Virus record (IMG/VR): IMGVR_UViG_648276647_000007
Length of the DNA: 36,541 bases
Reading direction: 5' to 3' (one strand)
DNA from: a virus
Lineage: Duplodnaviria; Heunggongvirae; Uroviricota; Caudoviricetes
Part shown: positions 2,259-36,541 of the stretch, in pieces
How the letters are laid out: each line of letters begins with the position of its first letter
Numbering within the stretch: position 1 is the first letter of the stretch
Position numbers and translations under genes: made by a program
Notes under the pieces: generated by a model
What the model was told of the DNA's origin: nothing
The model's input: only the letters and a program-made list of their open reading frames with translations
Databases searched by the model: none

Positions 2259-2287
2259 TGGGGAGGGCTTAGCCCTCCCTCTTTTTA
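2259..2287. terminator. GC-rich hairpin (gggagggc-tta-gccctccc) with T-tract, between convergent genes; probable bidirectional intrinsic terminator
   Basis: Perfect 8-bp inverted repeat at 2261-2279 followed by ctttttac; lies between the adhesin stop (2248) and the esterase stop (2285). Confidence 0.6.
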
Positions 2288-5043: not shown

Positions 5044-5180
5044 TGTTTGAGTCTTATATGGCAGAACGTCTTCGCCGCCGCTGGGTGCGCCTGCGCTTAT
5101 ATCGTTTTCCTAGTTCTGTTTTGACCGATTACCGGATACTGAAGAATTACGCCAAAACACTGAAAGGAGCTGCCGCATGA
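5040..5180 (+). CDS. YlcG-like small basic protein (46 aa)
   Basis: Not in the ORF track. ATGATG start overlaps the rusA stop; its stop overlaps the start of the Q-like gene (ATGA). Size and position match DLP12 ylcG. Confidence 0.5.
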
Positions 5181-5866
5181 ATACCCAATATTTACAGTAT
5201 GTCCGCGAGCAACTCATTGTGGCTACCGCTGATTTGAGCGGAGCAACGAAAGGACAGCTTGAAGCCTGGCTGGAGCATGCACAATTTGATACTGGTACAT
5301 ACAAACGAAAGAAGCCGCGCATTCTGGATGAGGTAACTGGCAGGATGATTACGCTGGATAATCCGCCGATTTCCGGTAAGCAGTTGTACGCAAAAGGTTC
5401 ATCCATTGCACTGGTCAGCCAGGTTGAGTTCTCAACCTCGTCATGGCGCCGCGCGGTTCTGTCTCTCGAAGAACATCAGAAAGCGTGGTTGCTGTGGAGT
5501 TACAGCGAAAGTGTTCGCTGGGAACATCAGGTCACCATAACGCAGTGGGCATGGAGCGAGTTTAAGACTCTGTTGGGTACCAGGAAAATTGCAGGTAAAA
5601 CACTGGAACGTTTGAAGAAGTTGATCTGGCTGGCGGCACAGGATGTGAAGAACGAGCTGGCAGGGCGTAAGACCTATGAATACCAGGAGCTGGCATCACT
5701 GGTGGGAGTGACATCAAAAAACTGGTCTGAGACATTTACTGAACGCTGGATTGCAATGAAGCACATTTTTCTACAGCTTGATAGCCAAGCTTTATTGCTT
5801 TTAACGAAAACACGTTCAAAACAAAAGACCATATTTTCACAGCAAGATATTGCAAAACTGGATTAA
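5177..5866 (+). CDS. Late-gene antiterminator, Q-family (QuuD/QuuQ-like, not lambda Q)
   Basis: 229 aa ORF immediately upstream of a promoter/leader/terminator unit and the lysis cassette, which is the canonical Q position. No similarity to lambda Q itself that I can see. Confidence 0.55.
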   Translation: MNTQYLQYVREQLIVATADLSGATKGQLEAWLEHAQFDTGTYKRKKPRILDEVTGRMITLDNPPISGKQLYAKGSSIALVSQVEFSTSSWRRAVLSLEEHQKAWLLWSYSESVRWEHQVTITQWAWSEFKTLLGTRKIAGKTLERLKKLIWLAAQDVKNELAGRKTYEYQELASLVGVTSKNWSETFTERWIAMKHIFLQLDSQALLLLTKTRSKQKTIFSQQDIAKLD

Positions 5867-16919: not shown

Positions 16920-17273
16920 GTGGCTGATTTCGATAACCTGTTCGATGCTGCCATTGCCCGCGCCGATGAAACGATACGCGGGTACATGGGAACGTCAGCC
17001 ACCATGACATCCGGTGAGCAGTCCGGCGCAGTAATACGTGGTGTTTTTGATGACCCTGAAAATATCAGCTATGCCGGACAGGGCGTGCGCGTTGAAGGCT
17101 CCAGCCCGTCCCTGTTTGTCCGGACTGATGATGTGCGGCAGCTGCGGCGCGGCGACACGCTGACCATCGGTGAGGAAAACTTCTGGATAGACCGGATTTC
17201 GACGGATGATGGCGGAAGCTGTCATCTCTGGCTTGGGCGTGGCGTGCCGCCTGCCGTTAACCGTCGTCGCTGA
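16920..17273 (+). CDS. Head-tail joining protein FII
   Basis: 117 aa; lambda gpFII position and size. Confidence 0.9.
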   Translation: MADFDNLFDAAIARADETIRGYMGTSATMTSGEQSGAVIRGVFDDPENISYAGQGVRVEGSSPSLFVRTDDVRQLRRGDTLTIGEENFWIDRISTDDGGSCHLWLGRGVPPAVNRRR

Positions 17274-17284
17274 AGGGGGGATGT

Positions 17285-17863
17285 ATGGCCATAAAAGGTC
17301 TTGAGCAGGCCGTTGAAAACCTCAGCCGTATCAGCAGAACGGCGGTGCCCGGTGCCGCCGCAATGGCCATTAACCGCGTTGCTTCATCCGCGATATCGCA
17401 GTCGGCGTCACAGGTTGCCCGTGAGACAAAGGTACGCCGGAAACTGGTTAAGGAAAGGGCCAGGCTGAAAAGGGCCACGGTCAAAAATCCGCAGGCCAGA
17501 ATCAAGGTTAACCGGGGGGATTTGCCCGTAATCAGGCTGGGTAACGCGCGGGTTGTCCTGTCCCGACGCAGGCGTCGTAAAAAGGGGCAGCGTTCATCCC
17601 TGAAAGGTGGCGACAGCGTGCTTGTGGTGGGAAACCGTCGTATTCCCGGCGCGTTTATTCAGCAACTGAAAAATGGCCGGTGGCATGTCATGCAGCGTGT
17701 GGCCGGGAAAAACCGTTACCCCATTGATGTGGTGAAAATCCCGATGGCAGTGCCGCTGACCACGGCGTTTAAACAGAATATTGAGCGGATACGGCGTGAA
17801 CGTCTTCCGAAAGAGCTGGGCTATGCGCTGCAGCATCAACTGAGGATGGTAATAAAGCGATGA
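17285..17863 (+). CDS. Z: Tail completion protein Z
   Basis: 192 aa; lambda gpZ position and size. Confidence 0.9.
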   Translation: MAIKGLEQAVENLSRISRTAVPGAAAMAINRVASSAISQSASQVARETKVRRKLVKERARLKRATVKNPQARIKVNRGDLPVIRLGNARVVLSRRRRRKKGQRSSLKGGDSVLVVGNRRIPGAFIQQLKNGRWHVMQRVAGKNRYPIDVVKIPMAVPLTTAFKQNIERIRRERLPKELGYALQHQLRMVIKR

Positions 17864-18255
17864 AACATACAGAACTCCGTGCAGCCGTACTGGATGCACT
17901 GGAAAAACATGACACCGGGGCGACGCTTTTTGATGGTCGCCCCGCTGTTTTTGATGAGGAGGATTTTCCGGCAGTTGCCGTTTATCTCACCGGCGCTGAA
18001 TACACGGGCGAAGAGCTGGACAGCGATACCTGGCAGGCGGAGCTGCATATTGAAGTTTTCCTGCCTGCTCAGGTGCCGGATTCAGAGCTGGATTCGTGGA
18101 TGGAGTCCCGGATTTATCCGGTGATGAGCGATGTCCCGGCACTGTCAGATTTGATCACCAGTATGGTGGCCAGTGGCTATGACTACCGGCGCGACGATGA
18201 TGCGGGCCTGTGGAGTTCAGCCGATCTGACTTATGTCATTACCTATGAAATGTGA
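17860..18255 (+). CDS. U: Tail terminator protein U
   Basis: 131 aa; ATGA-coupled to Z; lambda gpU. Confidence 0.9.
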
Positions 18256-18262
18256 GGACGAT

Positions 18263-19003
18263 ATGCCTGTACCAAATCCAGTAATGCCGGTGAAAGGGGC
18301 CGGGACCACCCTGTGGGTTTATAAGGGGAACGGTGACCCTTATGCGAACCCGCTTTCAGACGTTGACTGGTCGCGTCTGGCTAAAGTTAAAGACCTGACG
18401 CCCGGCGAACTGAGCGCTGAGTCCTATGACGACAGCTATCTCGATGATGAAGATGCGGACTGGACTGCGACCGGGCAGGGGCAGAAATCTGCCGGAGATA
18501 CCAGCTTCACGCTGGCGTGGATGCCCGGAGAGCAGGGGCAGCAGGCGCTGCTGGCGTGGTTTAATGAAGGGGATACCCGTGCCTATAAAATCCGCTTCCC
18601 GAACGGCACGGTCGATGTGTTCCGCGGCTGGGTCAGCAGTATCGGTAAGGCGGTGACGGCGAAGGAAGTGATCACCCGCACGGTGAAAGTCACCAACGTG
18701 GGACGTCCGTCGATGGCAGAAGATCGCAGCACGGTGACGGCGACAACCGGCATGACGGTGACACCCGCCAGTGCTTCCGTAGTGAAAGGGCAGAGCACTA
18801 CGCTGACCGTGGCATTCCAGCCGGAGGGCGCAACCGACAAGAGCTTCCGTGCGGTGTCTGCGGATAAAACAAAAGCCACCGTGTCGGTCAGCGGTATGAC
18901 CATCACCGTGAACGGCGTTGCTGCAGGCAAGGTCAACATTCCGGTTGTATCCGGTAATGGTGAGTTTGCTGCGGTTGCAGAAATCACCGTCACCGCCAGT
19001 TAA
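18263..19003 (+). CDS. V: Major tail tube protein V (with C-terminal Ig-like domain)
   Basis: 246 aa from [22 protein letters not shown]...; lambda gpV. Confidence 0.9.
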
Positions 19004-19018
19004 TCCGGAGAGTCAGCG

Positions 19019-19441
19019 ATGTTCCTGAAAACCGAATCATTTGAATATAACGGCGTGACCGTCACGCTTTCTGAACTGTCAGCCCTGCAGCGTATTGAGC
19101 ATCTTGCCCTGATGAAACGGCAGGCAGAACCGGCGGGATCCGACAGCAACCGGCAGGTTACTGTGGAAGACGTCATCAGAACCGGCGCGTTTCTGGTGGC
19201 GATGTCCCTGTGGCATAACCATCCGAAGAAGACGCAGATGCCGTCCATGAATGAAGCCGTTAAACAGATTGAGCAGGAAGTGCTTACCACCTGGCCCACA
19301 GAGGCAATTTCTCATGCTGAAAACGTGGTGTACCGGCTGTCCGGTATGTATGAGTTTGTGGTGAATAATGCCCCCGAACAGGCAGAGGACGCCGGGCCTG
19401 CAGAGCCTGTTTCTGCGGGAAAGTGTTCGACGGTGAGCTGA
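19019..19441 (+). CDS. G: Tail assembly chaperone G
   Basis: 140 aa; lambda gpG. Confidence 0.9.
   Translation: MFLKTESFEYNGVTVTLSELSALQRIEHLALMKRQAEPAGSDSNRQVTVEDVIRTGAFLVAMSLWHNHPKKTQMPSMNEAVKQIEQEVLTTWPTEAISHAENVVYRLSGMYEFVVNNAPEQAEDAGPAEPVSAGKCSTVS
19417..19423 (+). promoter_or_regulatory. Programmed -1 ribosomal frameshift slippery heptamer G_GGA_AAG (G to G-T)
   Basis: Heptamer GGGAAAG sits in the G frame about 6 codons before the G stop; the -1 frame continues as the T ORF (19423-19857). This is the conserved lambda G/GT mechanism. Confidence 0.8.
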
Positions 19442-19857
19442 GTTTTGCCCTGAAACTGGCGCGTGAGATGGGGCGACCCGACTGGCGTGCCATGCTTGCC
19501 GGGATGTCATCCACGGAGTATGCCGACTGGCACCGCTTTTACAGTACCCATTATTTTCATGATGTTCTGCTGGATATGCACTTTTCCGGGCTGACGTACA
19601 CCGTGCTCAGCCTGTTTTTCAGCGATCCGGATATGCATCCGCTGGATTTCAGTCTGCTGAACCGGCGCGAGGCTGACGAAGAGCCTGAAGATGATGTGCT
19701 GATGCAGAAAGCGGCAGGGCTTGCCGGAGGTGTCCGCTTTGGCCCGGACGGGAATGAAGTTATCCCCGCTTCCCCGGATGTGGCGGACATGACGGAGGAT
19801 GACGTAATGCTGATGACAGTATCAGAAGGGATCGCAGGAGGAGTCCGGTATGGCTGA
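19423..19857 (+). CDS. T: T portion of the G-T frameshift fusion tail assembly chaperone
   Basis: -1 frame ORF of 144 aa directly following the slippery site; no independent ATG or RBS, consistent with expression only as a G-T fusion. Confidence 0.8.
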   Translation: MFDGELSFALKLAREMGRPDWRAMLAGMSSTEYADWHRFYSTHYFHDVLLDMHFSGLTYTVLSLFFSDPDMHPLDFSLLNRREADEEPEDDVLMQKAAGLAGGVRFGPDGNEVIPASPDVADMTEDDVMLMTVSEGIAGGVRYG

Positions 19858-22410
19858 ACCGGTAGGCGATCTGGTCGTTGATTTGAGTCTGGATGCGGCC
19901 AGATTTGACGAGCAGATGGCCAGAGTCAGGCGTCATTTTTCCGGTACGGAAAGTGATGCGAAAAAAACAGCGGCAGTCGTTGAACAGTCGCTGAGCCGAC
20001 AGGCGCTGGCTGCACAGAAAGCGGGGATTTCCGTCGGGCAGTATAAAGCCGCCATGCGTATGCTGCCTGCACAGTTCACCGACGTGGCCACGCAGCTTGC
20101 AGGCGGGCAAAGTCCGTGGCTGATCCTGCTGCAACAGGGGGGGCAGGTGAAGGACTCCTTCGGCGGGATGATCCCCATGTTCAGGGGGCTTGCCGGTGCG
20201 ATCACCCTGCCGATGGTGGGGGCCACCTCGCTGGCGGTGGCGACCGGTGCGCTGGCGTATGCCTGGTATCAGGGCAACTCAACCCTGTCCGATTTCAACA
20301 AAACGCTGGTCCTTTCCGGCAATCAGGCGGGTCTGACGGCAGATCGTATGCTGGTCCTGTCCAGAGCCGGGCAGGCGGCAGGGCTGACGTTTAACCAGAC
20401 CAGCGAGTCACTCAGCGCACTGGTTAAGGCGGGGGTAAGCGGTGAGGCTCAGATTGCGTCCATCAGCCAGAGTGTGGCGCGTTTCTCCTCTGCATCCGGC
20501 GTGGAGGTGGACAAGGTCGCTGAAGCCTTCGGGAAGCTGACCACAGACCCGACGTCGGGGCTGACGGCGATGGCACGCCAGTTCCATAACGTGACGGCGG
20601 AGCAGATTGCGTATGTTGCTCAGTTGCAGCGTTCCGGCGATGAAGCCGGGGCATTGCAGGCGGCGAACGAGGCCGCAACGAAAGGGTTTGATGACCAGAC
20701 CCGCCGCCTGAAAGAGAACATGGGCACGCTGGAGACCTGGGCAGACAGGACTGCGCGGGCATTCAAATCCATGTGGGATGCGTGCTGGATATTGGTCGTC
20801 CTGATACCGCGCAGGAGATGCTGATTAAGGCAGAGGCTGCGTTTAAGAAAGCAGACGACATCTGGAATCTGCGCAAGGATGATTATTTTGTTAACGATGA
20901 AGCGCGGGCGCGTTACTGGGATGATCGTGAAAAGGCCCGTCTTGCGCTTGAAGCCGCCCGAAAGAAGGCTGAACAGCAGAGTCAACAGGACAAAAATGCG
21001 CAGCAGCAGAGCGATACCGAAGCGTCACGGCTGAAATATACCGAAGAGGCGCAGAAGGCTTACGAACGGCTGCAGACGCCGCTGGAGAAATATGCCGCCC
21101 GTCAGGAAGAACTGAATAAGGCCCTGAAAGACGGAAAAATCCTGCAGGCAGATTACAACACGCTGATGGCGGCAGCGAAAAAGGACTATGAAACGACACT
21201 GAAAAAGCCGAAGCAGTCCGGCGTGAAGGTGTCTGCGGGCGATCGTCAGGAAGACAGTGCTCATGCTGCCCTGCTGACGCTTCAGGCTGAACTCCGGACG
21301 CTGGAGAAGCATGCCGGAGCAAATGAGAAAATCAGCCAGCAGCGCCGGGATTTGTGGAAGGCGGAGAGTCAGTTCGCGGTACTGGAGGAGGCGGCGCAAC
21401 GTCGCCAGCTGTCTGTACAGGAGAAATCCCTGCTGGCGCATAAAGATGAGACGCTGGAGTACAAACGCCAGCTGGCTGCACTTGGCGACAAGGTTACGTA
21501 TCAGGAGCGCCTGAACGCGCTGGCGCAGCAGGCGGATAAATTCGCACAGCAGCAACGGGCAAAACGGGCCGCCATTGATGCGAAAAGCCGGGGGCTGACT
21601 GACCGGCAGGCAGAACGGGAAGCCACGGAACAGCGCCTGAAGGAACAGTATGGCGATAATCCGCTGGCGCTGAATAACGTCATGTCAGAGCAGAAAAAGA
21701 CCTGGGCGGCTGAAGACCAGCTTCGCGGGAACTGGATGGCAGGCCTGAAGTCCGGCTGGAGTGAGTGGGAAGAGAGCGCCACGGACAGTATGTCGCAGGT
21801 AAAAAGTGCAGCCACGCAGACCTTTGATGGTATTGCACAGAATATGGCGGCGATGCTGACCGGCAGTGAGCAGAACTGGCGCAGCTTCACCCGTTCCGTG
21901 CTGTCCATGATGACAGAAATTCTGCTTAAGCAGGCAATGGTGGGGATTGTCGGGAGTATCGGCAGCGCCATTGGCGGGGCTGTTGGTGGCGGCGCATCCG
22001 CGTCAGGCGGTACAGCCATTCAGGCCGCTGCGGCGAAATTCCATTTTGCAACCGGAGGATTTACGGGAACCGGCGGCAAATATGAGCCAGCGGGGATTGT
22101 TCACCGTGGTGAGTTTGTCTTCACGAAGGAGGCAACCAGCCGGATTGGCGTGGGGAATCTTTACCGGCTGATGCGCGGCTATGCCACCGGCGGTTATGTC
22201 GGTACACCGGGCAGCATGGCAGACAGCCGGTCGCAGGCGTCCGGGACGTTTGAGCAGAATAACCATGTGGTGATTAACAACGACGGCACGAACGGGCAGA
22301 TAGGTCCGGCTGCTCTGAAGGCGGTGTATGACATGGCCCGCAAGGGTGCCCGTGATGAAATTCAGACACAGATGCGTGATGGTGGCCTGTTCTCCGGAGG
22401 TGGACGATGA
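19850..22410 (+). pseudogene. H: Tail tape-measure protein H, interrupted by a 1-nt frameshift near 20781-20784
   Basis: Two ORFs (19850-20824 and 20773-22410, different frames) together span the length and position of lambda H (853 aa). The upstream frame reads ...FKSMWDA then CWILVVLIPRRRC-stop; the other frame continues GCVLDIGRPDTAQEML..., so restoring one base after gatgcg would rejoin them. Confidence 0.8.
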
Positions 22411-22736
22411 AGACCTTCCGCTGGAAAGTGAAACCCGGTATGGATGTGGCTTCGGTCCCTTCTGTAAGAAAGGTGCGCTTTGGTGATGGCTATTCTCAGC
22501 GAGCGCCTGCCGGGCTGAATGCCAACCTGAAAACGTACAGCGTGACGCTTTCTGTCCCCCGTGAGGAGGCCACGGTACTGGAGTCGTTTCTGGAAGAGCA
22601 CGGGGGCTGGAAATCCTTTCTGTGGACGCCGCCTTATGAGTGGCGGCAGATAAAGGTGACCTGCGCAAAATGGTCGTCGCGGGTCAGTATGCTGCGTGTT
22701 GAGTTCAGCGCAGAGTTTGAACAGGTGGTGAACTGA
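22407..22736 (+). CDS. M: Tail tip protein M
   Basis: 109 aa; lambda gpM. Confidence 0.9.
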   Translation: MKTFRWKVKPGMDVASVPSVRKVRFGDGYSQRAPAGLNANLKTYSVTLSVPREEATVLESFLEEHGGWKSFLWTPPYEWRQIKVTCAKWSSRVSMLRVEFSAEFEQVVN

Positions 22737-23434
22737 TGCAGGATATCCGGCAGGAAACACTGAATGAATGCACCCGTGCGGAGCAGTCGGCCAGCGTGGT
22801 GCTCTGGGAAATCGACCTGACAGAGGTCGGTGGAGAACGTTATTTTTTCTGTAATGAGCAGAACGAAAAAGGTGAGCCGGTCACCTGGCAGGGGCGACAG
22901 TATCAGCCGTATCCCATTCAGGGGAGCGGTTTTGAACTGAATGGCAAAGGCACCAGTACGCGCCCCACGCTGACGGTTTCTAACCTGTACGGTATGGTCA
23001 CCGGGATGGCGGAAGATCTGCAGAGTCTGGTCGGCGGAACGGTGGTCCGGCGTAAGGTTTACGCCCGTTTTCTGGATGCGGTGAACTTCGTCAACGGAAA
23101 CAGTTATGCCGATCCGGAGCAGGAGGTGATCAGCCGCTGGCGCATTGAGCAGTGCAGCGAACTGAGCGCGGTGAGTGCCTCCTTTGTACTGTCCACGCCG
23201 ACGGAAACGGATGGCGCTGTTTTTCCGGGACGTATCATGCTGGCCAACACCTGCACCTGGACCTATCGCGGTGACGAGTGCGGTTATAGCGGTCCGGCTG
23301 TCGCGGATGAATATGACCAGCCAACGTCCGATATCACGAAGGATAAATGCAGCAAATGCCTGAGCGGTTGTAAGTTCCGCAATAACGTCGGCAACTTTGG
23401 CGGCTTCCTTTCCATTAACAAACTTTCGCAGTAA
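22736..23434 (+). CDS. L: Tail tip protein L
   Basis: 232 aa with C-terminal Cys cluster; lambda gpL. Confidence 0.9.
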   Translation: MQDIRQETLNECTRAEQSASVVLWEIDLTEVGGERYFFCNEQNEKGEPVTWQGRQYQPYPIQGSGFELNGKGTSTRPTLTVSNLYGMVTGMAEDLQSLVGGTVVRRKVYARFLDAVNFVNGNSYADPEQEVISRWRIEQCSELSAVSASFVLSTPTETDGAVFPGRIMLANTCTWTYRGDECGYSGPAVADEYDQPTSDITKDKCSKCLSGCKFRNNVGNFGGFLSINKLSQ

Positions 23435-23582
23435 TCCCATGACACAGACAGAATCAGCGATTCTGGCGCACGCCCGGCGATGTGCGCCAGCGGAGTCGTG
23501 TGGCTTCGTGGTGAGAACGCCGAAGGGGGAAAGATATTTTCCCTGCGTGAATATCTCCGGTGAGCCGGAGGCGTATTTCCGG

Positions 23583-24182
23583 ATGTCGCCGGAGGACTGG
23601 CTGCGGGCAGAGATGCAGGGTGAGATTGTGGCGCTGGTCCACAGCCACCCCGGTGGTCTGCCCTGGCTGAGTGAGGCTGACAGGCGGCTGCAGGTGCAGA
23701 GCGATTTGCCGTGGTGGCTGGTCTGCCGGGGTGAGATTCATAAATTCCGCTGTGTGCCGCATCTTACCGGGCGGCGCTTTGAGCACGGGGTGACGGACTG
23801 TTACACGCTGTTCCGGGATGCTTATCATCTGGCGGGGATTGAGATGCCGGATTTTCATCGCGGGGATGACTGGTGGCGTCACGGTCAGAATCTCTATCTG
23901 GATAATCTGGAGGCCACAGGGCTGTATCAGGTGCCGTTGTCATCAGCACAACCGGGCGATGTGCTGCTGTGCTGTTTTGGTTCATCGGTGCCGAATCATG
24001 CCGCCATTTACTGTGGTGATGGCGAGCTGCTGCACCATATTCCTGAACAACTGAGCAAACGAGAGAGGTATACCGACAAATGGCAGCGACGCACACACTC
24101 CCTCTGGCGTCACCGGGCATGGCACGCATCTGCCTTTACGGGGATTTGCAACGATTTGGCCGCCGCATCGATCTTCGTGTGA
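23583..24182 (+). CDS. K: Tail tip assembly protein K (JAB/MPN + NlpC/P60-like)
   Basis: 199 aa from MSPEDWL..., containing the HSHP metalloprotease-like motif. The frame is open upstream to 23397, so a longer N-terminus is possible. Confidence 0.8.
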   Translation: MSPEDWLRAEMQGEIVALVHSHPGGLPWLSEADRRLQVQSDLPWWLVCRGEIHKFRCVPHLTGRRFEHGVTDCYTLFRDAYHLAGIEMPDFHRGDDWWRHGQNLYLDNLEATGLYQVPLSSAQPGDVLLCCFGSSVPNHAAIYCGDGELLHHIPEQLSKRERYTDKWQRRTHSLWRHRAWHASAFTGICNDLAAASIFV

Positions 24183-24751
24183 AAACGGGGGCTGAAGCTA
24201 TCCGGGCGCTGGCCACACAGCTCCCGGCGTTTCGTCAGAAACTGAGCGACGGCTGGTATCAGGTACGGATTGCCGGGCGGGATGTCAGCACGTCCGGATT
24301 AACGGCGCAGTTACATGAGACTCTGCCTGATGGCGCTGTGATTCATATTGTTCCCAGAGTCGCCGGGGCCAAGTCAGGTGGTGTATTCCAGATTGTCCTG
24401 GGAGCTGCCGCCATTGCCGGATCATTCTTTACTGCCGGAGCCACCCTTGCAGCATGGGGGGCAGCCATTGGGGCCGGTGGTATGACCGGCATCCTGTTTT
24501 CTCTCGGTGCCAGTATGGTGCTCGGTGGTGTGGCGCAGATGCTGGCACCGAAAGCCAGAACTCCCCGCACACAGACAACGGATAACGGCAAACAGAACAC
24601 CTATTTTTCCTCACTGGATAACATGGTTGCTCAGGGCAATGTTTTGCCTGTTCTGTACGGTGAAATGCGTGTGGGGTCGCGGGTGGTTTCTCAGGAGATC
24701 AGCACGGCAGACGAAGGGGACGGTGGTCAGGTTGTGGTGATTGGTCGCTGA
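24080..24751 (+). CDS. I: Tail tip assembly protein I
   Basis: 223 aa with glycine/alanine-rich hydrophobic C-terminal half; lambda gpI; overlaps the K 3' end. Confidence 0.9.
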   Translation: MAATHTLPLASPGMARICLYGDLQRFGRRIDLRVKTGAEAIRALATQLPAFRQKLSDGWYQVRIAGRDVSTSGLTAQLHETLPDGAVIHIVPRVAGAKSGGVFQIVLGAAAIAGSFFTAGATLAAWGAAIGAGGMTGILFSLGASMVLGGVAQMLAPKARTPRTQTTDNGKQNTYFSSLDNMVAQGNVLPVLYGEMRVGSRVVSQEISTADEGDGGQVVVIGR

Positions 24752-24769
24752 TGCAAAATGTTTTATGTG

Positions 24770-24793
24770 AAACCGCCTCCGGGCGGTTTTATC
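24770..24793 (+). terminator. Hairpin aaaccgcc-tccg-ggcggttt + T-rich tract between I and J
   Basis: Perfect 8-bp stem then ttatcgttt; likely partial terminator or attenuator. Confidence 0.4.
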
Positions 24794-24808
24794 GTTTATG
24801 GAGCATGA

Positions 24809-28210
<3,402 letters not shown>

Positions 28211-28277: not shown

Positions 28278-28877
28278 ATGCGTAAATTATGTGCTGTTAT
28301 TCTGTCCGCAGTAGTCTTGCTGGTTGCCGCTGGTACGCCAGCGAGCGCAGCAGAGCATCAGTCCACACTAAGCGCCGGGTATCTTCAGACCCATACTGAT
28401 ATGCCAGGCAGTGATGACCTGAAGGGCATTAACGTGAAATACCGTTATGAATTTACGGACACGCTGGGGCTGGTGACGTCATTCAGTTATGCCAATGCCA
28501 AAGATGAGCAAAAAACGCATTACAGCGATACCCGCTGGCATGAAGATTCCGTGCGTAACCGCTGGTTCAGCATGATGGCGGGGCCATCAGTACGCGTGAA
28601 TGAATGGTTCAGTGCTTATGCGATGGCGGGTATGGCTTACAGCCGTGTGTCGACCTTCTCCGGGGATTATCTCCGCGTAACTGACAACAAGGGGAAAACG
28701 CACGATGTGCTGACCGGAAGTGATGACGGTCGCCACAGCAACACGTCTCTGGCGTGGGGGGCTGGCGTGCAGTTTAACCCGACCGAATCCGTGGCCATTG
28801 ACCTTGCTTATGAAGGTTCCGGCAGTGGTGACTGGCGCACTGACGGTTTCATCGTGGGTGCCGGTTATAAATTCTGA
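28278..28877 (+). CDS. lom: Lom outer-membrane protein (Ail/Lom/OmpX family)
   Basis: 199 aa with signal peptide and C-terminal ...GSGDWRTDGFIVGAGYKF beta-barrel terminus, as in lambda Lom. Confidence 0.85.
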   Translation: MRKLCAVILSAVVLLVAAGTPASAAEHQSTLSAGYLQTHTDMPGSDDLKGINVKYRYEFTDTLGLVTSFSYANAKDEQKTHYSDTRWHEDSVRNRWFSMMAGPSVRVNEWFSAYAMAGMAYSRVSTFSGDYLRVTDNKGKTHDVLTGSDDGRHSNTSLAWGAGVQFNPTESVAIDLAYEGSGSGDWRTDGFIVGAGYKF

Positions 28878-28935: not shown

Positions 28936-30693
28936 GTGGATATGGTAGCAGTAAAAATCTCAGGTGTGCTGAAAGATGGTGCGGGAAAACCAATACAGAA
29001 CTGCACTATTCAACTGAAGGCAAAGCGTAACAGCACCACGGTACTGGTGAACACGGTGGCATCTGAAAATCCTGATGAAGCCGGGCGTTACAGTATGGAT
29101 GTTGAGTATGGCCAGTACAGCGTCACCCTGCTGGTTGAAGGTTTTCCGCCTTCACATGCCGGGACCATTACCGTCTATGAAGGTTCCAGACCAGGTACGC
29201 TGAATGATTTTCTCGGTGCCATGACGGAAGATGATGTCATGCCGGAGGCATTGCGTCGTTTTGAGGAAATGGTGGAAGAAGCGGCACGCAACGCCGAAGC
29301 CGCCTCTCAGAGCGCAGCGGCGGCAAAGAAATCCGAAACTGCATCGGCAGCAAGCCAGACAGCAGCTAAAGCAAGTGAAGACGCAGCCAGAGAGTATGCA
29401 AGTCAGGCAGCAGAGCCGTATAAATATGTCTTACAGCCACTGCCTGATGTGTGGATACCGTTTAACGATTCACTGGATATGATTACGGGTTTTTCGCCAT
29501 CTTATAAAAAGATAGTTATTGGTGACGATGAAATAACAATGCCAGGCGACAAGATTGTTAAGTTTAAACGTGCTTCAACAGCAACGTATATTAATAAGTC
29601 CGGCCAACTCAAGCTTGCTGAAGTTGACGAACCGCGATTTGAGCGCGATGGCTTATTGATTGAAGGACAGAGGACAAATTATCTGAGGAACTCAAATAAA
29701 CCAGACTCATGGACTGTTCATTCCGCACTGAATAAAACATTTGGCACTGATAAACAGGGGTTCAATTATGCCACGGTGACACCCACGGAAAGTATAGTGG
29801 GAACAACAGGTGGCTATACTGTGCATGGTGTGGTTGCAGCAGACAGATTCCCGCTGGCAAGTGGTGAATGTTTCACTTTTTCGTGCCGGGTTAAAGGCGC
29901 TAAAGCACGATGCAGGTTAAGAGTTTCAGTTATTATTGGTGGAACAGATACCTTCTCTGCTGACTCTTATCTTGATCTGGATACCCGGATCGCAACAGTA
30001 AGCGGTAATACATCCCTTATAACAGCCAAAGCTGAACAACAGGGCGAGTGGACCTACTATGAGGCCACTTATACAGCTAATACGGACATTGATACCGTTA
30101 ACTGTGCTTTTTATATGACAAATAAAATAAGTAATGAGACATTCTATGATGACTCAACATTAACCATGACGACGCCGCAAATTGAACTGGGCAATACGGC
30201 ATCGTCATTTATTGTAACTACAATGCCAACAACACGCGCAAGTGATGTAGTTACTATCCCATCGCAGAATAACCTGTCAACACGGCCTTTTACGGTATTG
30301 TGCGAAGTAAGCAGGAACTGGAGTACACCGCCCAATGTTGCGCCAAGGATATTTGATGTTGGAGGGCACAGTATTGATGATAATTATTTATCGCTGGGGT
30401 TTGTTGCAACAGGAAAGATAAGCGCCAACGTAGGAATGGTTCAGCCACAAATTGCCTCAGATGGAGAAAGGTTCATTGTGGGTGTGAGAGCTAAATCTGA
30501 TTTATCAGTAAATGCAATATGCAATGGTAATTATACAACAAACCTTAATGGTAAAATATTTGGAGTTACAGCAACATCGTACCGGTTTGGTGGGCAGACC
30601 GCAGCAGGAACGCGTCATTTGTTTGGACACATCAGAAATTTCAGAGTCTGGTTTAAAGAATTAAATGACAGGCAAATCAAGGAGGCAGTATGA
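28936..30693 (+). CDS. stf: Side tail fibre protein with lambda Stf-like N-terminus and divergent C-terminal receptor-binding domain (possibly LamG/concanavalin-like)
   Basis: First ~150 aa (MAVKISGVLKDGAGKPIQNCTIQLKAKRNSTT...SMDVEYGQYSV...) resemble lambda Stf; the rest lacks the long Ala/Ser-rich shaft and ends in a G.IRNFRVW...L.DRQI-like motif. Confidence 0.7.
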   Translation: MDMVAVKISGVLKDGAGKPIQNCTIQLKAKRNSTTVLVNTVASENPDEAGRYSMDVEYGQYSVTLLVEGFPPSHAGTITVYEGSRPGTLNDFLGAMTEDDVMPEALRRFEEMVEEAARNAEAASQSAAAAKKSETASAASQTAAKASEDAAREYASQAAEPYKYVLQPLPDVWIPFNDSLDMITGFSPSYKKIVIGDDEITMPGDKIVKFKRASTATYINKSGQLKLAEVDEPRFERDGLLIEGQRTNYLRNSNKPDSWTVHSALNKTFGTDKQGFNYATVTPTESIVGTTGGYTVHGVVAADRFPLASGECFTFSCRVKGAKARCRLRVSVIIGGTDTFSADSYLDLDTRIATVSGNTSLITAKAEQQGEWTYYEATYTANTDIDTVNCAFYMTNKISNETFYDDSTLTMTTPQIELGNTASSFIVTTMPTTRASDVVTIPSQNNLSTRPFTVLCEVSRNWSTPPNVAPRIFDVGGHSIDDNYLSLGFVATGKISANVGMVQPQIASDGERFIVGVRAKSDLSVNAICNGNYTTNLNGKIFGVTATSYRFGGQTAAGTRHLFGHIRNFRVWFKELNDRQIKEAV

Positions 30694-30968
30694 AAGATTT
30701 AACTTTGAAATTTCCTGGTAACAGAGAGTTTAAATCCTTCCTGTCATCTCTTGACTGGGAGGAGGATGAAGACCTCCAGAATAAACTGTTAGTCGATGAA
30801 ATTGGTTTCACCTACACAGAAACAGGGGTAACAGAAGAGGGAGAACCTGTCTGTGTCCGGAATGACGGTTATTTTGTCAACATTCGCATTCTTGATGACT
30901 TGTTTGATGTTTCTGTATTCTCTGATTATGTCGTGGAGCTGGAAACACCGCTTCGGGAATGGAGCTGA
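30690..30968 (+). CDS. Hypothetical acidic protein (92 aa), translationally coupled to the tail fibre gene
   Basis: ATGA overlap with the stf stop; sits where a tail fibre assembly gene would be expected but is smaller than typical Tfa proteins. Confidence 0.45.
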   Translation: MKDLTLKFPGNREFKSFLSSLDWEEDEDLQNKLLVDEIGFTYTETGVTEEGEPVCVRNDGYFVNIRILDDLFDVSVFSDYVVELETPLREWS

Positions 30969-30980
30969 AAGGAGGAAATA

Positions 30981-31274
30981 ATGGATATAAGCCCCTTACT
31001 TCATGCACTTTGTGCTGTGGCTGCGCAGATACTGGTTGGTCTTTTTACCGGAAACTGGGCTTACGGAGCGATAGCCGGTTGTACGTTCTTCATTGCGCGT
31101 GAACATACCCAGGCAGAATATCGCTGGATTGAAATGTTCGGGCATGGCAAGCGAATGAATATGCCGTGGTGGGGCGGTTTTGATCCGCGAGCTTGGGATG
31201 TGGCAAGCCTGATGGATTTTGCTGTGCCGGTGGTGGCGTGTCTGCTGGTCTGGCTGTTGGTTAATCGTGGGTGA
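30981..31274 (+). CDS. Hypothetical small membrane protein (97 aa, two predicted TM helices)
   Basis: Strong RBS (gaaaggaggaaataATG); hydrophobic N- and C-terminal segments flanking a W/R-rich loop. Confidence 0.45.
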   Translation: MDISPLLHALCAVAAQILVGLFTGNWAYGAIAGCTFFIAREHTQAEYRWIEMFGHGKRMNMPWWGGFDPRAWDVASLMDFAVPVVACLLVWLLVNRG

Positions 31275-31365
31275 AAAAAGGTGAGCTGTATATGCAACGG
31301 AGGAAGAAACCCCGTTGCTGGAAGCCAGGAAAAAGTATCGGGTGTTGCTGTCCTCGGATGTTGTG

Positions 31366-32223
31366 CTAATTGGGTGATAACAGATCCTGTGTATGGGAGT
31401 TTCCCTTTTTGCGTGCGTTGATGCTGGTAACGGCAAACGTCATGATGAACAAAACCGCGAATAAGACGACAATCGTCGGAGCTGGTGCGCTGTCGATAAA
31501 AAAGGACAACCAGACACCAGTCATTGACACTATTACCGATATGCCAGTCGCCAGTAGGAGCGCAATATGAAAGCGTTGTGTCAGGAGTACCGCAATGGCG
31601 CCAGGCGCAATGAGCAGAGAAATGGAGAGAATGATACCTACCGCTTTCAGCGTCGCCACAATGGTCAGAGAGACCATGCACAGCAGCCCATAATGCAGCC
31701 ATCTCGTATGCAAACCGCTTACCTGCGCCTGTTGATAATCAAAGCTGAACAGCAAAAAATCCCGCCATTTTACGCTAATAACAAGTGTAACCAGCCCGGC
31801 AATAATCATCGTCTGGATTATATCGCCGATGGTTATCCCGAGCATGTCGCCGAAAAGAATATGGTCAAGATGTACGTCTGGTTTGACTGCAATATACAAG
31901 ATCAGACCTGCGGCAAACATGCCAGAAAAAACAATCCCCATCACTGTATCTTGCTTGATTCGGCTGTTGTCTTTCAGGTATCCCGTCGCCACCGCACAGA
32001 ATACTCCGGCGACGAATGCCCCTGTAGCCAAAGGTAACCCCAGAATCCAGGCAAGCACGATGCCAGGAAAAACCGCATGACTCATCGCGTCACCCATCAG
32101 TGCCCAACCTTTCAGGACCAGAAAGACCGACAGCAGCGCACAGGGTATGGAAACTACCAGTGAAATCAGCAGTGCGTGACTCATAAAGGTGAACTGCAGT
32201 GGCTCCAGTAATAATGCCATCAT
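31366..32223 (-). CDS. sitD: Mn/Fe ABC transporter permease SitD (ABC-3 family)
   Basis: 285 aa polytopic membrane protein, last gene of a four-gene minus-strand operon with overlapping start/stop codons; paralogous to the adjacent permease. Confidence 0.8.
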   Translation of the reverse strand: MMALLLEPLQFTFMSHALLISLVVSIPCALLSVFLVLKGWALMGDAMSHAVFPGIVLAWILGLPLATGAFVAGVFCAVATGYLKDNSRIKQDTVMGIVFSGMFAAGLILYIAVKPDVHLDHILFGDMLGITIGDIIQTMIIAGLVTLVISVKWRDFLLFSFDYQQAQVSGLHTRWLHYGLLCMVSLTIVATLKAVGIILSISLLIAPGAIAVLLTQRFHIALLLATGISVIVSMTGVWLSFFIDSAPAPTIVVLFAVLFIMTFAVTSINARKKGNSHTQDLLSPN

Positions 32224-33077
32224 GAGCGATCCTCCAGCGCCTTATGCGCACGCCGACGATTTGCCAAAAGCCCATGGGTGGGCGCAAAGACAAATGCTAA
32301 AAGAAACAGCAGTGTCTGCGCCACCACGATGATTCCACCTGTCGCGCCGTCCAGAAAGTAACTGACCCACGCGCCGAGGAAACTGGTTACACTGCCAATA
32401 GTTACAGCAATCATGAGCAGGCGGGGAAAACGATCGGTTAACAACCATGCTGTTGCACCGGGAGTCACCACCAGACAGATCACCAGAAAGGCACCAACCG
32501 TTTGCAGCGCCGCAACGGTCGAAACCGACAGCAGGGTGAAGAAGAGGAGTTTTAATCTGCCCGGATGCAATCCAATAGCACGGGCGTGATTCTCGTCGAA
32601 AAAGGTCACCATAAGATCTTTCCATTTGAAAAAAAGCACGATGATCGAGAGAATGCCAATGATAGTGAGTTGCAGGATATCCGCCGGATCGATTGCCAGA
32701 ATATTGCCCAGGACGATGGTCTGAATGTTCACAGATGTCGGGTTCAATGACACCATAAACAGCCCCAGGCCAAAAAAGGACGAGAAGATCAGACCGATGA
32801 TGGCATCTTCTTTTAAGCGGGTGCGTTGGTTAAGAAACAGCATGCTGCCCGCAGCCAGTCCGCCGGAAAAGAAGGCTCCCAGAGAAAACGGAAGCCCCAG
32901 CATATATGCCCCCGCAACACCCGGGACAATAGAGTGCGACAACGCATCGCCAATCAGCGACCAGCCTTTTAGCATCAGATAGCATGACAGGAAAGCGCAG
33001 AGACCGCCGACCATCGCCGAGACCCACATCGCATTGAGCATATATTCATAGCTGAAGGGTTCCAGTAGCACGTTCAT
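32220..33077 (-). CDS. sitC: Mn/Fe ABC transporter permease SitC (ABC-3 family)
   Basis: 285 aa polytopic membrane protein; operon position. Confidence 0.8.
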
Positions 33078-33901
33078 CTTTCTTCCCTCTGCACCGCTGA
33101 CGGTCGATGAGCCACAAAAGGGCGTTCATCGTCAGTAATAATGCTTTCTTCCGAGCCGTTAAGTGTGACATGGCGCAGTACGCCGCTAAAAGCCAGCTCT
33201 AGGTTCTCGGCTGTAAAAGTGGTGTCTGTCGGCCCGCTTGCCAGGACGGTGCCTTTGACCATGACCGTATAATCGCAAAATGTCGTGACGGATCCGAGAT
33301 TGTGTGTTGAGACAAGCATCGTTTTGCCTTCCGCGCGTAACTCCCTCAACAGGCTGATGATTTTGGCTTCGGTTTTCACATCAACGCCAGTAAAAGGTTC
33401 ATCCAGCAGGATCACATCACCCTGCTGTGCAATCGCTCTCGCCAGAAAGACGCGTTTCTTTTGTCCACCGGAAAGCTCGCCGATTTGTCGATGGCGAAAA
33501 TTCACCATATCGACACGTTCCAGCGCATCGGTGACAATTTGACGATCCCTCTTTTTGGCGATACGCAACATACCCATATGCCCATAGCGGCCCATCATCA
33601 CCACATCTTCCACCAGTACAGGAAATGACCAGTCAACATCTTCTGACTGAGGGACGTAGGCAACCAGGTTTTTCTGTAACGCCTGTCGCGTGGGAATACC
33701 CAGAACAGATATCTTTCCGCTGGTCAGACGCACAAATCCCATAATCGCTTTAAACAACGTCGATTTTCCGGAACCGTTTACCCCAACCAGAGCGGCAATA
33801 GATCCACTTGGTACTGTGAAGGATGCATCGCGCAGTGCTGTGTGCCCGTTACGCCAGGTGACAGTAACATCATTAACGACAATGCCTGCAGATTGCATCA
33901 T
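33074..33901 (-). CDS. sitB: Mn/Fe ABC transporter ATP-binding protein SitB
   Basis: 275 aa; Walker [13 protein letters not shown] signature LSGGQ, Walker B ILLDEP. Confidence 0.85.
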
Positions 33902-34815
33902 TATTTCTCCCTTTTCCCAGCTTTAATTCCCTGTACCAGCGTACTGGTAGTAACCTTAAGAAGGTCGATATACGTCGGTACCGGGCCGTTTTCTGTGCTC
34001 AGGGAATCGACATAGAGCACACCGCCGTAGTGTGCGCCGGTTTCACGCGCAACCTGACGCGCTGGTTTATCGGAAATCGTACTCTCGCTAAAGACTGCCG
34101 GGATATGATTTTTCTTAACTATATCAACAACCTTACGTACCTGCTGCGGTGTTCCTTGTTGATCGGCATTAATCGGCCACAGATAAAGCTCTTTTAGCCC
34201 CAAATCGCGTGCGAGATAAGAAAAAGCCCCTTCACTGGTGACCATCCATCGCTGATTCTCAGGGAGTTCCGTAATCTGCTTACGCAGGGGGGCAAGGATT
34301 TGGGTAATCTTGGCTTTATAAGTATCGGCATTGCGTTGGTAGGTTTGTGCATTTGCCGGATCGTATTTTATCAACGCATCACGAATATTATCGACGTAAA
34401 TCAGAGCATTATCTGGCGACATCCATGCATGGGGGTTAGGTTTGCCCTCATAGGGTCCTTCGGTGATCCCTACAGGCGTCACACCCGAAGAGACAATTAC
34501 TTCTGGAACCCCATTGAGATGCTGGTAAAAGCGTTGGAACCACAATTCCAGATTCATACCATTGGCAAGAATCAGTTGTGCCCCCTGCGCACGTTTAATA
34601 TCGCCAGGGGTAGGCTGATACTCATGAATTTCTGCACCAGGCTTGGTTATGGATGAGACTTCTGCAGCATCTCCCGCCACGTTTTTGGCCATATCCGCGA
34701 TGATGGTAAATGTTGTAATGACCTTGAATTTTTCAGTTGCACTTGCCTGAAATGCGATCGAGCAGGTGAGTGCGAGCCCCCCCAAGAGCATGGTTACTTT
34801 TTTTATCGAGTGCAT
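33901..34815 (-). CDS. sitA: Periplasmic Mn/Fe-binding protein SitA (TroA/cluster-9 substrate-binding protein)
   Basis: 304 aa with signal peptide; first gene of the operon. Sit/Yfe/Mnt family by motif recall; exact orthologue name unverified. Confidence 0.8.
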
Positions 34816-34847
34816 AATTTAGTACCTATAGTGAGCAAAATTAGAAC

Positions 34848-34869
34848 AAACATAGCAACGGCTATGTTT
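34848..34869 (-). promoter_or_regulatory. Candidate MntR operator (palindrome aaacatagc-aacg-gctatgttt) upstream of sitA
   Basis: Perfect 9-bp inverted repeat matching the enterobacterial MntR-box consensus as I remember it, about 35-55 bp upstream of the sitA start. Confidence 0.5.
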
Positions 34870-34888
34870 TATAGCACAGCCTATACAA

Positions 34889-34909
34889 AATGAAAATGAT
34901 TATCATTAG
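34889..34909 (-). promoter_or_regulatory. Candidate Fur box (aaaatgattatcattagc) upstream of sitA
   Basis: 13 of 14 match to the AATGATAATCATT core of the Fur consensus GATAATGATAATCATTATC. Confidence 0.5.
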
Positions 34910-35513
34910 CAGCTTTGAGGCCCAAAACAGGGATTAGGTTGTTTCCTGCTGGCGACGCGTTATTGAGGAAAAAAGTAAGGCAGCTAGTAGGCTTTGAAAT
35001 AACGTTTTGCGGTTGGCTGATGCAATTTCGAGAGTGCATGTATTGAATGATTTCTAGCCGTTACTGATTTTCGTATTTTTTGTATGGGAGGATTTGCACC
35101 TCCCCCCACCGAGCCTCCATGACTTTACTCCACTGTCTCTAGGGCTGCTGTGTGCCAGGAGCGGAAGCAGGGGGGCCAGAGACTCCTTAAAAGTTGATAG
35201 CTCGTTTTGCAGGGAGACTTACACGGTAAGCGTTATTCCGAAGAGCTTAAAATTGAAGCAGTCAAACGGGTTGTTGAGCGTGTTTATGCGCTGCCATCTG
35301 ATTAATCGACGGAAGCAGTTCCGTTTGGTCTATGATGCAGTTGTCCGGCAGGCGCTCTGTGACGCAAAAGAACGATAGGAGTAGCATTGAAGTGAACGAG
35401 GTTATGCTTGTCTTATATTATCCTCTATTTTAAAAACATCAGCTGGTTGTGTAAGAGTTTTTATTGTTTTATCTTGTTGACTTTGCTTTTATGAAAACAG
35501 AGTGATTGATACA

Positions 35514-36041
35514 ATGAAAACCTTAAGTGGGAAAGAGTTTAGGAAATTATTTAATCGTTATGAGACAGGATTCTATCTAAGTGAGTTTGAATACTTAAAG
35601 GACTTTGATCCTTTGTTTCCTGAATGCGTAGGGAAAGAATTAAAGTTGGGTTATAAACGAAAAGTTGATGTATGGTGCGAAGAGGATGCTGCGCTATATG
35701 CAGAATTTATAGCTACAAAAGAAAGGCTGAAAAGAGGCCGGTTAATCCTAAAAATAAACCAAGTGTGGTCGCGTGTATATCCTGCTTATATTTATGCAAT
35801 TGAAGAAAGAATAAATGTCAGGGCAAAGGGGAGAGAGTCATTTAAGTATGAAACTGTGCAAGAAAAACAATGTAAACTTTCCATAATGTTAGATGGTCTG
35901 AAAGACCTTGAATGTGAAATAGCTATGATTTCAAGTGAGTTTGAAATTGAAAAACACTCTATGCACTATTTTTATATGATTTTTGATATTGAACGCTATA
36001 TAAATGACTGCAGTTACTTTGTTTTTTCTGGGCTTTGTTGA
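35514..36041 (+). CDS. Hypothetical protein in an AT-rich island; 3' end apparently replaced by the IS end
   Basis: ORF 35502-36041 (first ATG at 35514). Region is visibly AT-rich relative to the rest of the window. The last codons and the TGA stop (36039-36041) lie inside the IS terminal repeat starting at 36031. Confidence 0.4.
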   Translation: MKTLSGKEFRKLFNRYETGFYLSEFEYLKDFDPLFPECVGKELKLGYKRKVDVWCEEDAALYAEFIATKERLKRGRLILKINQVWSRVYPAYIYAIEERINVRAKGRESFKYETVQEKQCKLSIMLDGLKDLECEIAMISSEFEIEKHSMHYFYMIFDIERYINDCSYFVFSGLC

Positions 36042-36541
36042 ATAAATCGAACTTTTGCTGAGTTGAAGGATCAGATCACGCATCTTCCCGACAACGCAGA
36101 CCATTCCGTGGCAAAGCAAAAGTTCAAAATCACCAACTGGTCCACCTACAACAAAGCCCTCATCAACCGTGGCTCCATAACTTTCTGGCTGGACGATGAA
36201 GCTATTCAGGCCTGGTATGAGTCGGCAACGCCTTCATCACGGGGAAGACCTCAGCGCTATTCTGATCTCGCCATCACCACCGTTCTGGTCATTAAACGCG
36301 TGTTCAGGCTGACCCTGCGGGCTGCACAGGGTTTTATTGATTCCATTTTTACACTGATGAATGTTCCGTTGCGCTGCCCGGATTACACCAGTGTCAGTAA
36401 GCGCGCAAAGTCGGTTAATGTCAGTTTCAAAACGTTCACCCGGGGTGAAATCGCGCATCTGGTGATTGATTCCACCGGGCTGAAGGTCTCTGGTGAAGGC
36501 GAATGGAAAGTCAAAAAACACGGACAAAGAACGCCGTCGTA
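36031..36541 (+). mobile_element. IS903-group (IS5 family) insertion sequence, left end and 5' part; continues beyond the window
   Basis: Terminal sequence GGCTTTGTTGAATAAATCGAACTTTTGCTGAGTTGAAGGATCAGATCACGCATCTTCCCGACAACGCAGACC... matches the IS903/Tn903 end as I remember it. Confidence 0.75.
36107..36541 (+). CDS. IS903-group transposase, N-terminal 145 codons (3'-partial at window edge)
   Basis: Frame open from GTG 36107 to the window end, translating to VAKQKFKITNWSTYNKALINRGSITFWLDDEAIQAWYESATPSSRGRPQRYSDLAITTVLVIKRVFRLTLRAAQGF...; absent from the ORF track because no stop is reached. Confidence 0.75.

Follow-up and report, generated by a model that had tools for sequence, protein, structure and literature searches.

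An IS903-group insertion truncates CPT_21_31, an orphan gene of a phage-21-like prophage, in Escherichia coli M605

The stretch of DNA analysed here (the window) is the 36,541-nucleotide virus record IMGVR_UViG_648276647_000007, which carries near its right end an AT-rich open reading frame (ORF) that runs into an insertion sequence (IS). A first-pass annotation, made from the letters of the sequence only, had described this ORF as an orphan gene truncated by an IS903-group element. We found that the gene is CPT_21_31 of phage 21 and that, in Escherichia coli M605, an IS903-group element, probably 1,057 bp long, has transposed into its codon 173, duplicating the target TTTTTTCTG. The event is an ordinary pseudogenisation, private to this strain, of an orphan gene that was already catalogued.

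The ORF list gives the reading frame as 35502-36041 on the + strand, which corresponds to 179 residues from a GTG codon, the start called by RefSeq for this gene. From the ATG at 35514, where the PHROG profile begins, the product has 175 residues, so that the length first proposed (176 residues) was right within one residue. The end first proposed (36110) lies about 70 bases past the stop codon, at the start of the transposase ORF. Pairwise alignment with the allele of E. coli Nissle 1917, a hypothetical protein of 256 residues (WP_000567449.1), showed 100% identity through position 36030 and unrelated sequence from 36031, which is exactly where the IS903-group element had been placed and where the window reads GGCTTTGTTGAATAAATCG. 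A complete copy shows these bases to belong to the terminal inverted repeat of an IS5-family element of the IS903 group, 1,057 bp long. Positions 35502 or 35514 to 36030 thus represent, at 100% identity, the first 176 or 172 codons of a gene of 256 or 252 codons, depending on the start. The element supplies three codons (G-L-C) and the TGA stop at 36039-36041, inside its repeat, and the truncated protein ends with ...FVFS-GLC. Since the intact allele continues for 80 codons after the truncation point, it was also correct that the native C-terminus is missing and that the stop codon comes from the IS end. The features around the junction are the following.

35514-36030, + strand: native codons of the orphan gene, 1-172 out of 252, with the first base of codon 173.
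36022-36030, no strand: left copy of the 9-bp target-site duplication TTTTTTCTG; the same nine bases follow the right IS end in the M605 scaffold.
36031-36041, + strand: IS-derived end of the ORF (last two bases of a GGG codon, CTT, TGT and the TGA stop).
36031-36048, + strand: left terminal inverted repeat of the IS, 18 bp, GGCTTTGTTGAATAAATC; a complete 1,057-bp copy has the repeat inverted at both ends.
36031-36541, + strand: initial 511 bp of the element (IS903 group, IS5 family), up to the end of the window at a scaffold gap within the IS.
36108-36541, + strand: 5' part of the IS transposase gene, with a GTG start, running off the end of the window (PF13737 DDE_Tnp_1_5, E=4.7e-38).

An exact-sequence look-up identified the truncated protein as EGI17342.1 / WP_024262107.1 of E. 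coli M605, and the window agreed with this strain wherever the two were compared. In the M605 scaffold GL883901.1, a stretch of Ns within the IS comes directly after the last base of the window, and the public record therefore lacks some 60 bp of the element (L027 7042-7466, the GL883901.1 gap). The right IS end reads ...GATTTATTCAACAAAGCC|TTTTTTCTG|CTGCTAAAGTTG, which provided the target-site duplication that the first-pass annotation had suggested looking for at the far end. The nine bases that flank this end are those of window positions 36022-36030, and we therefore conclude that the element arrived by simple transposition with a 9-bp duplication; target duplications of 9 bp are typical of IS903. 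Past the IS, the remaining 80 codons of the gene are intact as a separate fragment, followed by the icd remnant, ymgL, ycgX, bluR and bluF in the same order as in Nissle. The IS junctions were absent from the complete E. coli genomes, metagenome contigs and species-representative genomes that we searched.

Assignment to the IS903 group rests on the 18-bp terminal repeats GGCTTTGTTGAATAAATC at both ends, the DDE transposase and the 9-bp duplication, all of which were seen. The element shares with IS903 and IS903B the same 18-bp terminal repeat, a DDE_Tnp_1_5 transposase and the length of the target duplication, and RefSeq annotates the matching copies in E. coli genomes as 'IS5-like element IS903B family transposase'. 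Its identity is 98.6% to unnamed copies annotated 'IS5 family transposase' and about 96% to IS903B, which makes it an isoform and not IS903B proper. The length of 1,057 bp is that of a complete copy with 98.6% identity, the M605 copy itself holding the gap of Ns.

A protein that could have been mistaken for the allele of the window, P0021, also has 179 residues. We rejected it, as its contig ends in the Nextera adapter CTGTCTCTTATACACATCT followed by poly-A. The adapter and poly-A are fused to the orphan gene (L011 9372-9518; GCA_027212945.1, contig JAPWFI010000128.1), and the identical length of this spurious protein and of the genuine IS-truncated one is an assembly artefact.

The intact gene was found both in Nissle (WP_000567449.1) and in phage 21, where it is CPT_21_31 (UMO75446.1), annotated 'hypothetical protein'. 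The window is 100% identical in nucleotides to the phage 21 gene over the 517 retained coding bases and the leader. The two differ in that the window allele is interrupted by the IS after codon 172; the phage 21 reference likewise has no assigned function. The intact allele matched phrog_20520 (function not assigned) with an E-value of 1.4e-177 over profile positions 1-252, and a literature search under the protein accession, the SEED identifier and the PHROG identifier returned nothing. The distribution of the gene was determined by megablast of window positions 35380-36035 against 5,426 complete E. coli genomes. The gene sequence was present in 760 of them, with at least 99% identity in all records but one, and every one of the matches listed stopped at window base 36030. 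Roughly 750 of the 760 carriers (>98%) have an intact allele that is about 100% identical; one carrier has a probable frameshift and one a deletion. Similarly, 20 of 21 matching phage records were intact and 100% identical, including phage 21, whose record gives as source a Paris sewer in the late 1950s, and the inducible Lambda_ev and PhiR phages. The suggestion that a costly gene had been inactivated is thus not supported as a general pattern. Nor did the ORF end naturally at the truncation point in related genomes, and conserved homologues of 252-261 residues exist.

A phage-21-like lambdoid prophage is integrated in icd, and the locus forms its right end, with the gene between sitABCD and attR. 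This agrees with the first-pass annotation, which took the ORF for an AT-rich orphan gene of a prophage b-region. The tail-fibre genes and sitABCD lie on one side of the gene and attR at icd on the other. The order of the genes (tail fibre, sitDCBA, the orphan gene, icd', attachment site) is that of the phage-21-type b-region, and window positions 30582-36030 share 99% identity with the b-region of phage 21. According to the genome announcement, this phage has morons, virulence loci among them, that differ from those of lambda (Feiss et al. 2022, PMC9119081). Like the other lambdoid b-region morons (lom and bor in lambda, sitABCD in phage 21), the orphan gene is dispensable, deviant in composition, independently organised and placed between the tail genes and the attachment site. 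It differs from lom, bor and sit in that no envelope location is predicted for it and no phenotype has been linked to it. It is divergent from sitA, at a distance of about 700 bp. The neighbouring moron is the following.

31366-34815, - strand: sitDCBA, iron/manganese ABC transporter (Nissle RefSeq annotation; Pfam ABC-3 and ZnuA).

As had been noticed at first, the GC content of the ORF (33-36%) is lower than that of its surroundings (about 50% for sitABCD and the IS). The full gene has 34.1% GC, with 31% at third codon positions, and is the most AT-rich stretch of the locus; its GC content was 34-38% in all hosts. The ratio of nonsynonymous to synonymous substitution rates ranged from 0.16 to 0.41 in 15 pairwise comparisons. 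The gene is real and under purifying selection. Word-indexed and exhaustive searches of billions of proteins delineated a family of about 20 clusters, with lengths of 252-261 residues and 63-99% identity to the query; its members occur in E. coli, Citrobacter, Klebsiella and Mangrovibacter and in a metagenome-assembled genome of the Aeromonadaceae. When the N-terminal 172 residues served as query, an exhaustive HMMER search added one distant relative, P0031, which is 25% identical over its full length and 37% identical in the N-terminal part. A profile search that included P0031 yielded no further members, so that the family totals about 21 clusters. C166, C183 and C195 are invariant in the close family and C205 nearly so, while these cysteines are absent from P0031; K7, R10 and K48 are invariant even in this distant homologue. 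P0031 (260 residues; L014 8001-8783, a Logan contig of SRR32281524) aligns over its full length and has the same two-part layout. Its contig carries IncFII RepA and DotM_C genes, and its gene sits between a DUF2913 gene cluster and a gene for a faintly HNH-like protein.

When hosts are compared, the DNA becomes homologous 80-120 bp before the ATG and stays so until at most about 90 bp past the stop codon. The gene is thus a self-contained AT-rich cassette of about 1 kb, made of a conserved leader of about 115 bp, the coding sequence and a tail of 60-90 bp. We encountered this cassette in the phage 21 b-region, in at least three different cargo positions of integrative conjugative elements with TraG/TraC/TraU-type transfer genes, beside a tyrosine recombinase of 200 residues in Klebsiella and Citrobacter, beside a type I restriction-modification system with an Imm50 gene, and in other chromosomal islets. 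It shows two marks of a moron, a deviant composition (34% versus about 50% GC) and a modular presence in unrelated contexts. An all-against-all BLASTP comparison of 22 flanking proteins revealed no neighbour common to the different contexts, the sole match being the 200-residue recombinase shared by two loci. We therefore rejected a toxin-antitoxin module, because there is no partner gene. At the two recombinase loci, in Klebsiella variicola (L003 9235-9837) and Citrobacter telavivensis (L004 5385-5987), the cassette adjoins recombinases that are 82.5% identical. In Citrobacter, genes for a DUF1963 protein, a T5orf172 protein (with similarity to PDC-S57 and PD-Lambda-1) and a protein of 389 residues are inserted between the recombinase and the cassette. 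The locus looks like a small cargo hotspot.

As to the protein itself, Pfam returned no family at E<=10, NCBIfam returned none, a profile search of the sequences in the PDB gave nothing relevant, and no membrane segment was predicted. We modelled the full-length protein with AlphaFold2 from a 20-sequence alignment. The model had a predicted local distance difference test (pLDDT) score of 89.7 and a predicted template modelling score of 0.81; the N-terminal 72 residues modelled alone had a pLDDT of 90.1. It comprises a beta-alpha-alpha-beta-beta domain (residues 1-55) and four long helices (56-110, 115-147, 153-190 and 206-251). The whole model matched only generic helical bundles and no viral structure. 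The N-terminal domain is mildly basic (isoelectric point 8.6) and the whole protein acidic (isoelectric point 5.3). The model thus points to a soluble protein with a winged helix of the MerR/excisionase type in residues 1-55, followed by a bundle of four long helices. In comparison with the MerR, excisionase and AlpA proteins (GIsul2 excisionase 8c3t, SoxR, BmrR, TipAL), the orphan protein differs in having no detectable sequence-profile similarity to them, a longer inter-helix loop (seven residues), an acidic second helix and, at its C-terminus, a four-helix bundle instead of a single dimerisation helix and an effector pocket. RacA and the Par protein of pSK1, both among the fold matches, share its domain order and size class; in contrast to these, the orphan protein has no sequence similarity or prophage partition context and its helices are predicted to fold back. 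The part of the gene retained in the window would encode the winged-helix domain, helices 1 and 2 and half of helix 3. In the model, truncation at residue 172 takes away the rest of helix 3 and the whole of helix 4, so that the M605 product is very unlikely to fold and the allele is most likely null.

The leader upstream of the coding sequence contains the following features.

35393-35513, + strand: conserved non-coding leader, presumed promoter/operator; it was recognised by cross-species homology and travels with the gene in every host examined.
35464-35477, + strand: TTGTTTTATCTTGT, candidate CII box (TTGYN6TTGY); it is marked as a CII binding site in the phage 21 annotation (OL657228.1) and is a pattern match only.

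Alignment of the leaders revealed near-invariant blocks such as GGTTGTGTAAGAGT and GTTTTATCTTGTTGAC. In the phage 21 copy, TTGTTTTATCTTGT lies 37 bp upstream of the ATG; the TTGYN6TTGY pattern occurs five times in the whole window, both strands included. A CAAC-N2-GTTG palindrome in the leader was considered as an operator and rejected, because its variation lacks compensatory changes. A downstream stem-loop or terminator found no support, since the 100 nucleotides past the gene have no better folding than shuffled sequence (z=-0.32).

Further evidence on the fate of the gene was obtained from other IS insertions in it. Six complete genomes carry IS1 (768 bp) at six different sites of the 771-bp coding sequence, after nucleotides 166, 225, 304, 422, 598 and 739, in both orientations, and the gene segments flanking IS1 overlap by 9-11 bp. 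M605, with its IS903-group element at nucleotide 529 of the coding sequence, represents a seventh independent event. Strain 4/4 carries IS1 in the gene, while 4/0, 4/1-1 and 2/0 are without it. For comparison, three control stretches in the same genomes were considered: the leader/intergenic region (686 bp), sitAB (1,742 bp) and a 771-bp stretch with about 41% GC in the same prophage. None had an IS-split copy among the matches listed, which were the top-ranked ones; the control counts are incomplete, as they register an IS-split copy only if its match is a top-ranked one. If insertion rates per base were equal, the chance that all six IS1 copies fall in the gene and none in the two controls of equal identity would be about 0.003. 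This excess could reflect selection for loss of the gene or, equally well, a preference of the elements for AT-rich targets. The seven independent hits are thus a hint in favour of the idea that IS disruption betrays selection against the gene, but target preference explains them just as well. IS1 and IS903 insert preferentially into AT-rich DNA, and the targeting of IS903 is influenced by H-NS.

The account that we regard as probable overall is that of an IS-truncated cassette gene, CPT_21_31, coding for a DNA-binding accessory factor and hit by an IS in a most likely neutral event. Its component on function is more tentative: to judge from the modelled fold, the intact protein is possibly a DNA-binding accessory regulator or an architectural factor that belongs to mobile elements. 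Its winged helix would bind DNA, perhaps the conserved leader of its own gene, while the helical bundle would mediate oligomerisation or act as a sensor. In phage 21, the gene may be turned on during lysogenisation via the CII-type box. In M605, translation proceeds three codons into the IS repeat and then stops. The conservation of the leader and the match to a CII box in phage 21 are weak hints toward a regulator. The insertion is most likely neutral, since the b-region is dispensable and IS1 and IS903 have the target preference mentioned above.

Several observations weigh against this account. Two of the five full-length models were of low confidence (pLDDT of about 60), and no profile match connects the N-terminal domain with the MerR, HTH_17 or AlpA families, Pfam returning nothing at E<=10. 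The helix that would be expected to recognise DNA (SEFEYLKDF) is acidic, an uncommon property for such a role, and the same fold in CbpM and DafA, both among the fold matches, binds protein rather than DNA. A consensus scan of the leader disclosed no sigma-70 promoter on the + strand, and only the phage copy preserves the CII box, homologues outside phages having TGGT or TAGT in place of its first TTGT. Finally, the gene has taken seven independent IS hits within 771 bp and the flanking controls showed none among the matches listed, which exceeds a purely neutral expectation unless the target preference is strong.

An alternative that would accommodate these hits is that the gene is a single-gene cargo for phage exclusion, abortive infection or anti-defence, costly enough for IS knock-outs to be repeatedly selected. 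We consider this rather unlikely. It would be consistent with the placement of the gene among the cargo of conjugative elements and in the b-region of a lambdoid prophage, and with the presence of defence-type genes near some homologues: one is close to the type I restriction-modification system and Imm50, one to the T5orf172 protein matching PDC-S57 and PD-Lambda-1, one has CTD7/MC3/LmuB_C genes about 7 kb away, and another is near Mrr_cat. A defence-type gene was thus found within 10 kb in four of about nine contexts, a small sample drawn from generic cargo hotspots. The seven independent IS insertions, to which the probable frameshift and the deletion add two further lesions, the lack of IS-split copies of the three controls among the matches listed, and the presence of IS1 in the gene of strain 4/4 but not in 4/0, 4/1-1 and 2/0 argue in the same direction. 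On the other hand, more than 98% of the carriers keep an intact allele of about 100% identity, as do viable phages including phage 21, the gene is the most AT-rich stretch of its locus and IS1 and IS903 both prefer AT-rich DNA, and the control counts only cover top-ranked split copies. Nothing in the sequence or fold of the protein speaks directly for such a role either. The proposal in the first-pass annotation of an anti-phage or toxin-type cargo found no credible match in PADLOC, the only one being PDC-M13C (E=0.0034, over 25 residues of the N-terminal domain), and we saw no Pfam or NCBIfam family, no enzyme-like fold, no nuclease, TIR, Sir2, ATPase or membrane effector, no membrane segment and no conserved partner gene. 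The more specific version, according to which the CPT_21_31 family would be an unrecognised single-protein conflict determinant, with a winged helix sensing or binding foreign DNA or protein and a cost that explains at least seven IS knock-outs in extraintestinal pathogenic E. coli, appears unlikely.

A DNA-segregation or anchoring protein resembling RacA or pSK1 Par, with the winged helix on a centromere-like site in the leader and coiled-coil assemblies, would account for the layout (a winged helix, then long helices), for the homologues on conjugative elements and the relative on a contig with an IncFII RepA gene, and for the conserved non-coding block directly upstream. We regard it as very improbable: an integrated lambdoid prophage needs no partition, the cassette occupies varying cargo positions in conjugative elements and not the neighbourhood of genes for replication or partition, the leader showed no iterated repeats like those of a centromere, and in the model the helices pack within the molecule as a bundle instead of forming an extended coiled coil. 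Still further down the scale, we rejected a metal- or redox-responsive MerR-like regulator of the divergent sitABCD operon. The MerR-like N-terminal fold, the cysteines conserved within the close family (C166, C183, C195 and, nearly, C205) and the position of the gene, about 700 bp from sitA and divergent from it, had made this idea attractive. The linkage does not extend beyond phage 21, as no sit or ABC-3/ZnuA neighbour was found for the homologues in Citrobacter, Klebsiella, Mangrovibacter, Aeromonadaceae and conjugative elements. Furthermore, sitAB was present in 2,384 genomes, including more than 1,000 plasmid places, as against 760 genomes, plus six non-mobilizable 'plasmid' records, for the orphan gene; the cysteines are missing in P0031; and sit is regulated by Fur and MntR. 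This makes such a regulator extremely improbable.

Some other features of the region deserve mention. Between sitA and the orphan gene, a short ORF (35207-35305, + strand) is similar to the N-terminal end of OrfA of the IS3 family, with an HTH_Tnp_1 match below threshold (E=0.0045). The annotators of phage 21 noted a weak similarity to IS3 transposase in CPT_21_30, about 40 bp downstream, which was judged unconvincing, and an ORF of 48 residues upstream of the Mangrovibacter homologue (L005 9736-9882) looks by eye like a fragment of an IS3-type OrfA. The prophage is a mosaic relative to phage 21 (positions 9310-30582), with tail genes (17145-27309) 96% identical and head genes 65-69% identical. 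Divergence from phage 21 is seen in the segment 27394-30582, which extends from the C-terminal end of J to the side tail fibre inclusive and contains an Ail/Lom gene (28278-28877) without a match in that phage. Upstream of the Q antiterminator gene (5177-5866) are genes for an invasin-like protein of 694 residues with Big_1/Invasin_D3 repeats (164-2248, + strand) and for a BD-FAE/alpha-beta-hydrolase esterase of 347 residues (2285-3328, - strand). These two are probably further morons, of the late-regulatory region.

As found, the insertion matters little: a dispensable prophage gene became a pseudogene in one strain, and GenBank already listed the protein in its truncated as well as its intact form, each as hypothetical. 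The gene itself comes from phage 21, a founding lambdoid phage, and has no assigned function. It is present in about 14% of complete E. coli genomes, including those of Nissle 1917, CFT073, NU14 and APEC O18, where it adjoins the sitABCD virulence locus. It is a one-gene cassette that moves between phages, conjugative elements and chromosomal islets, and a repeated target of IS elements. Nothing here shows a new kind of system, and the gene family is a reasonable small target for experiments.

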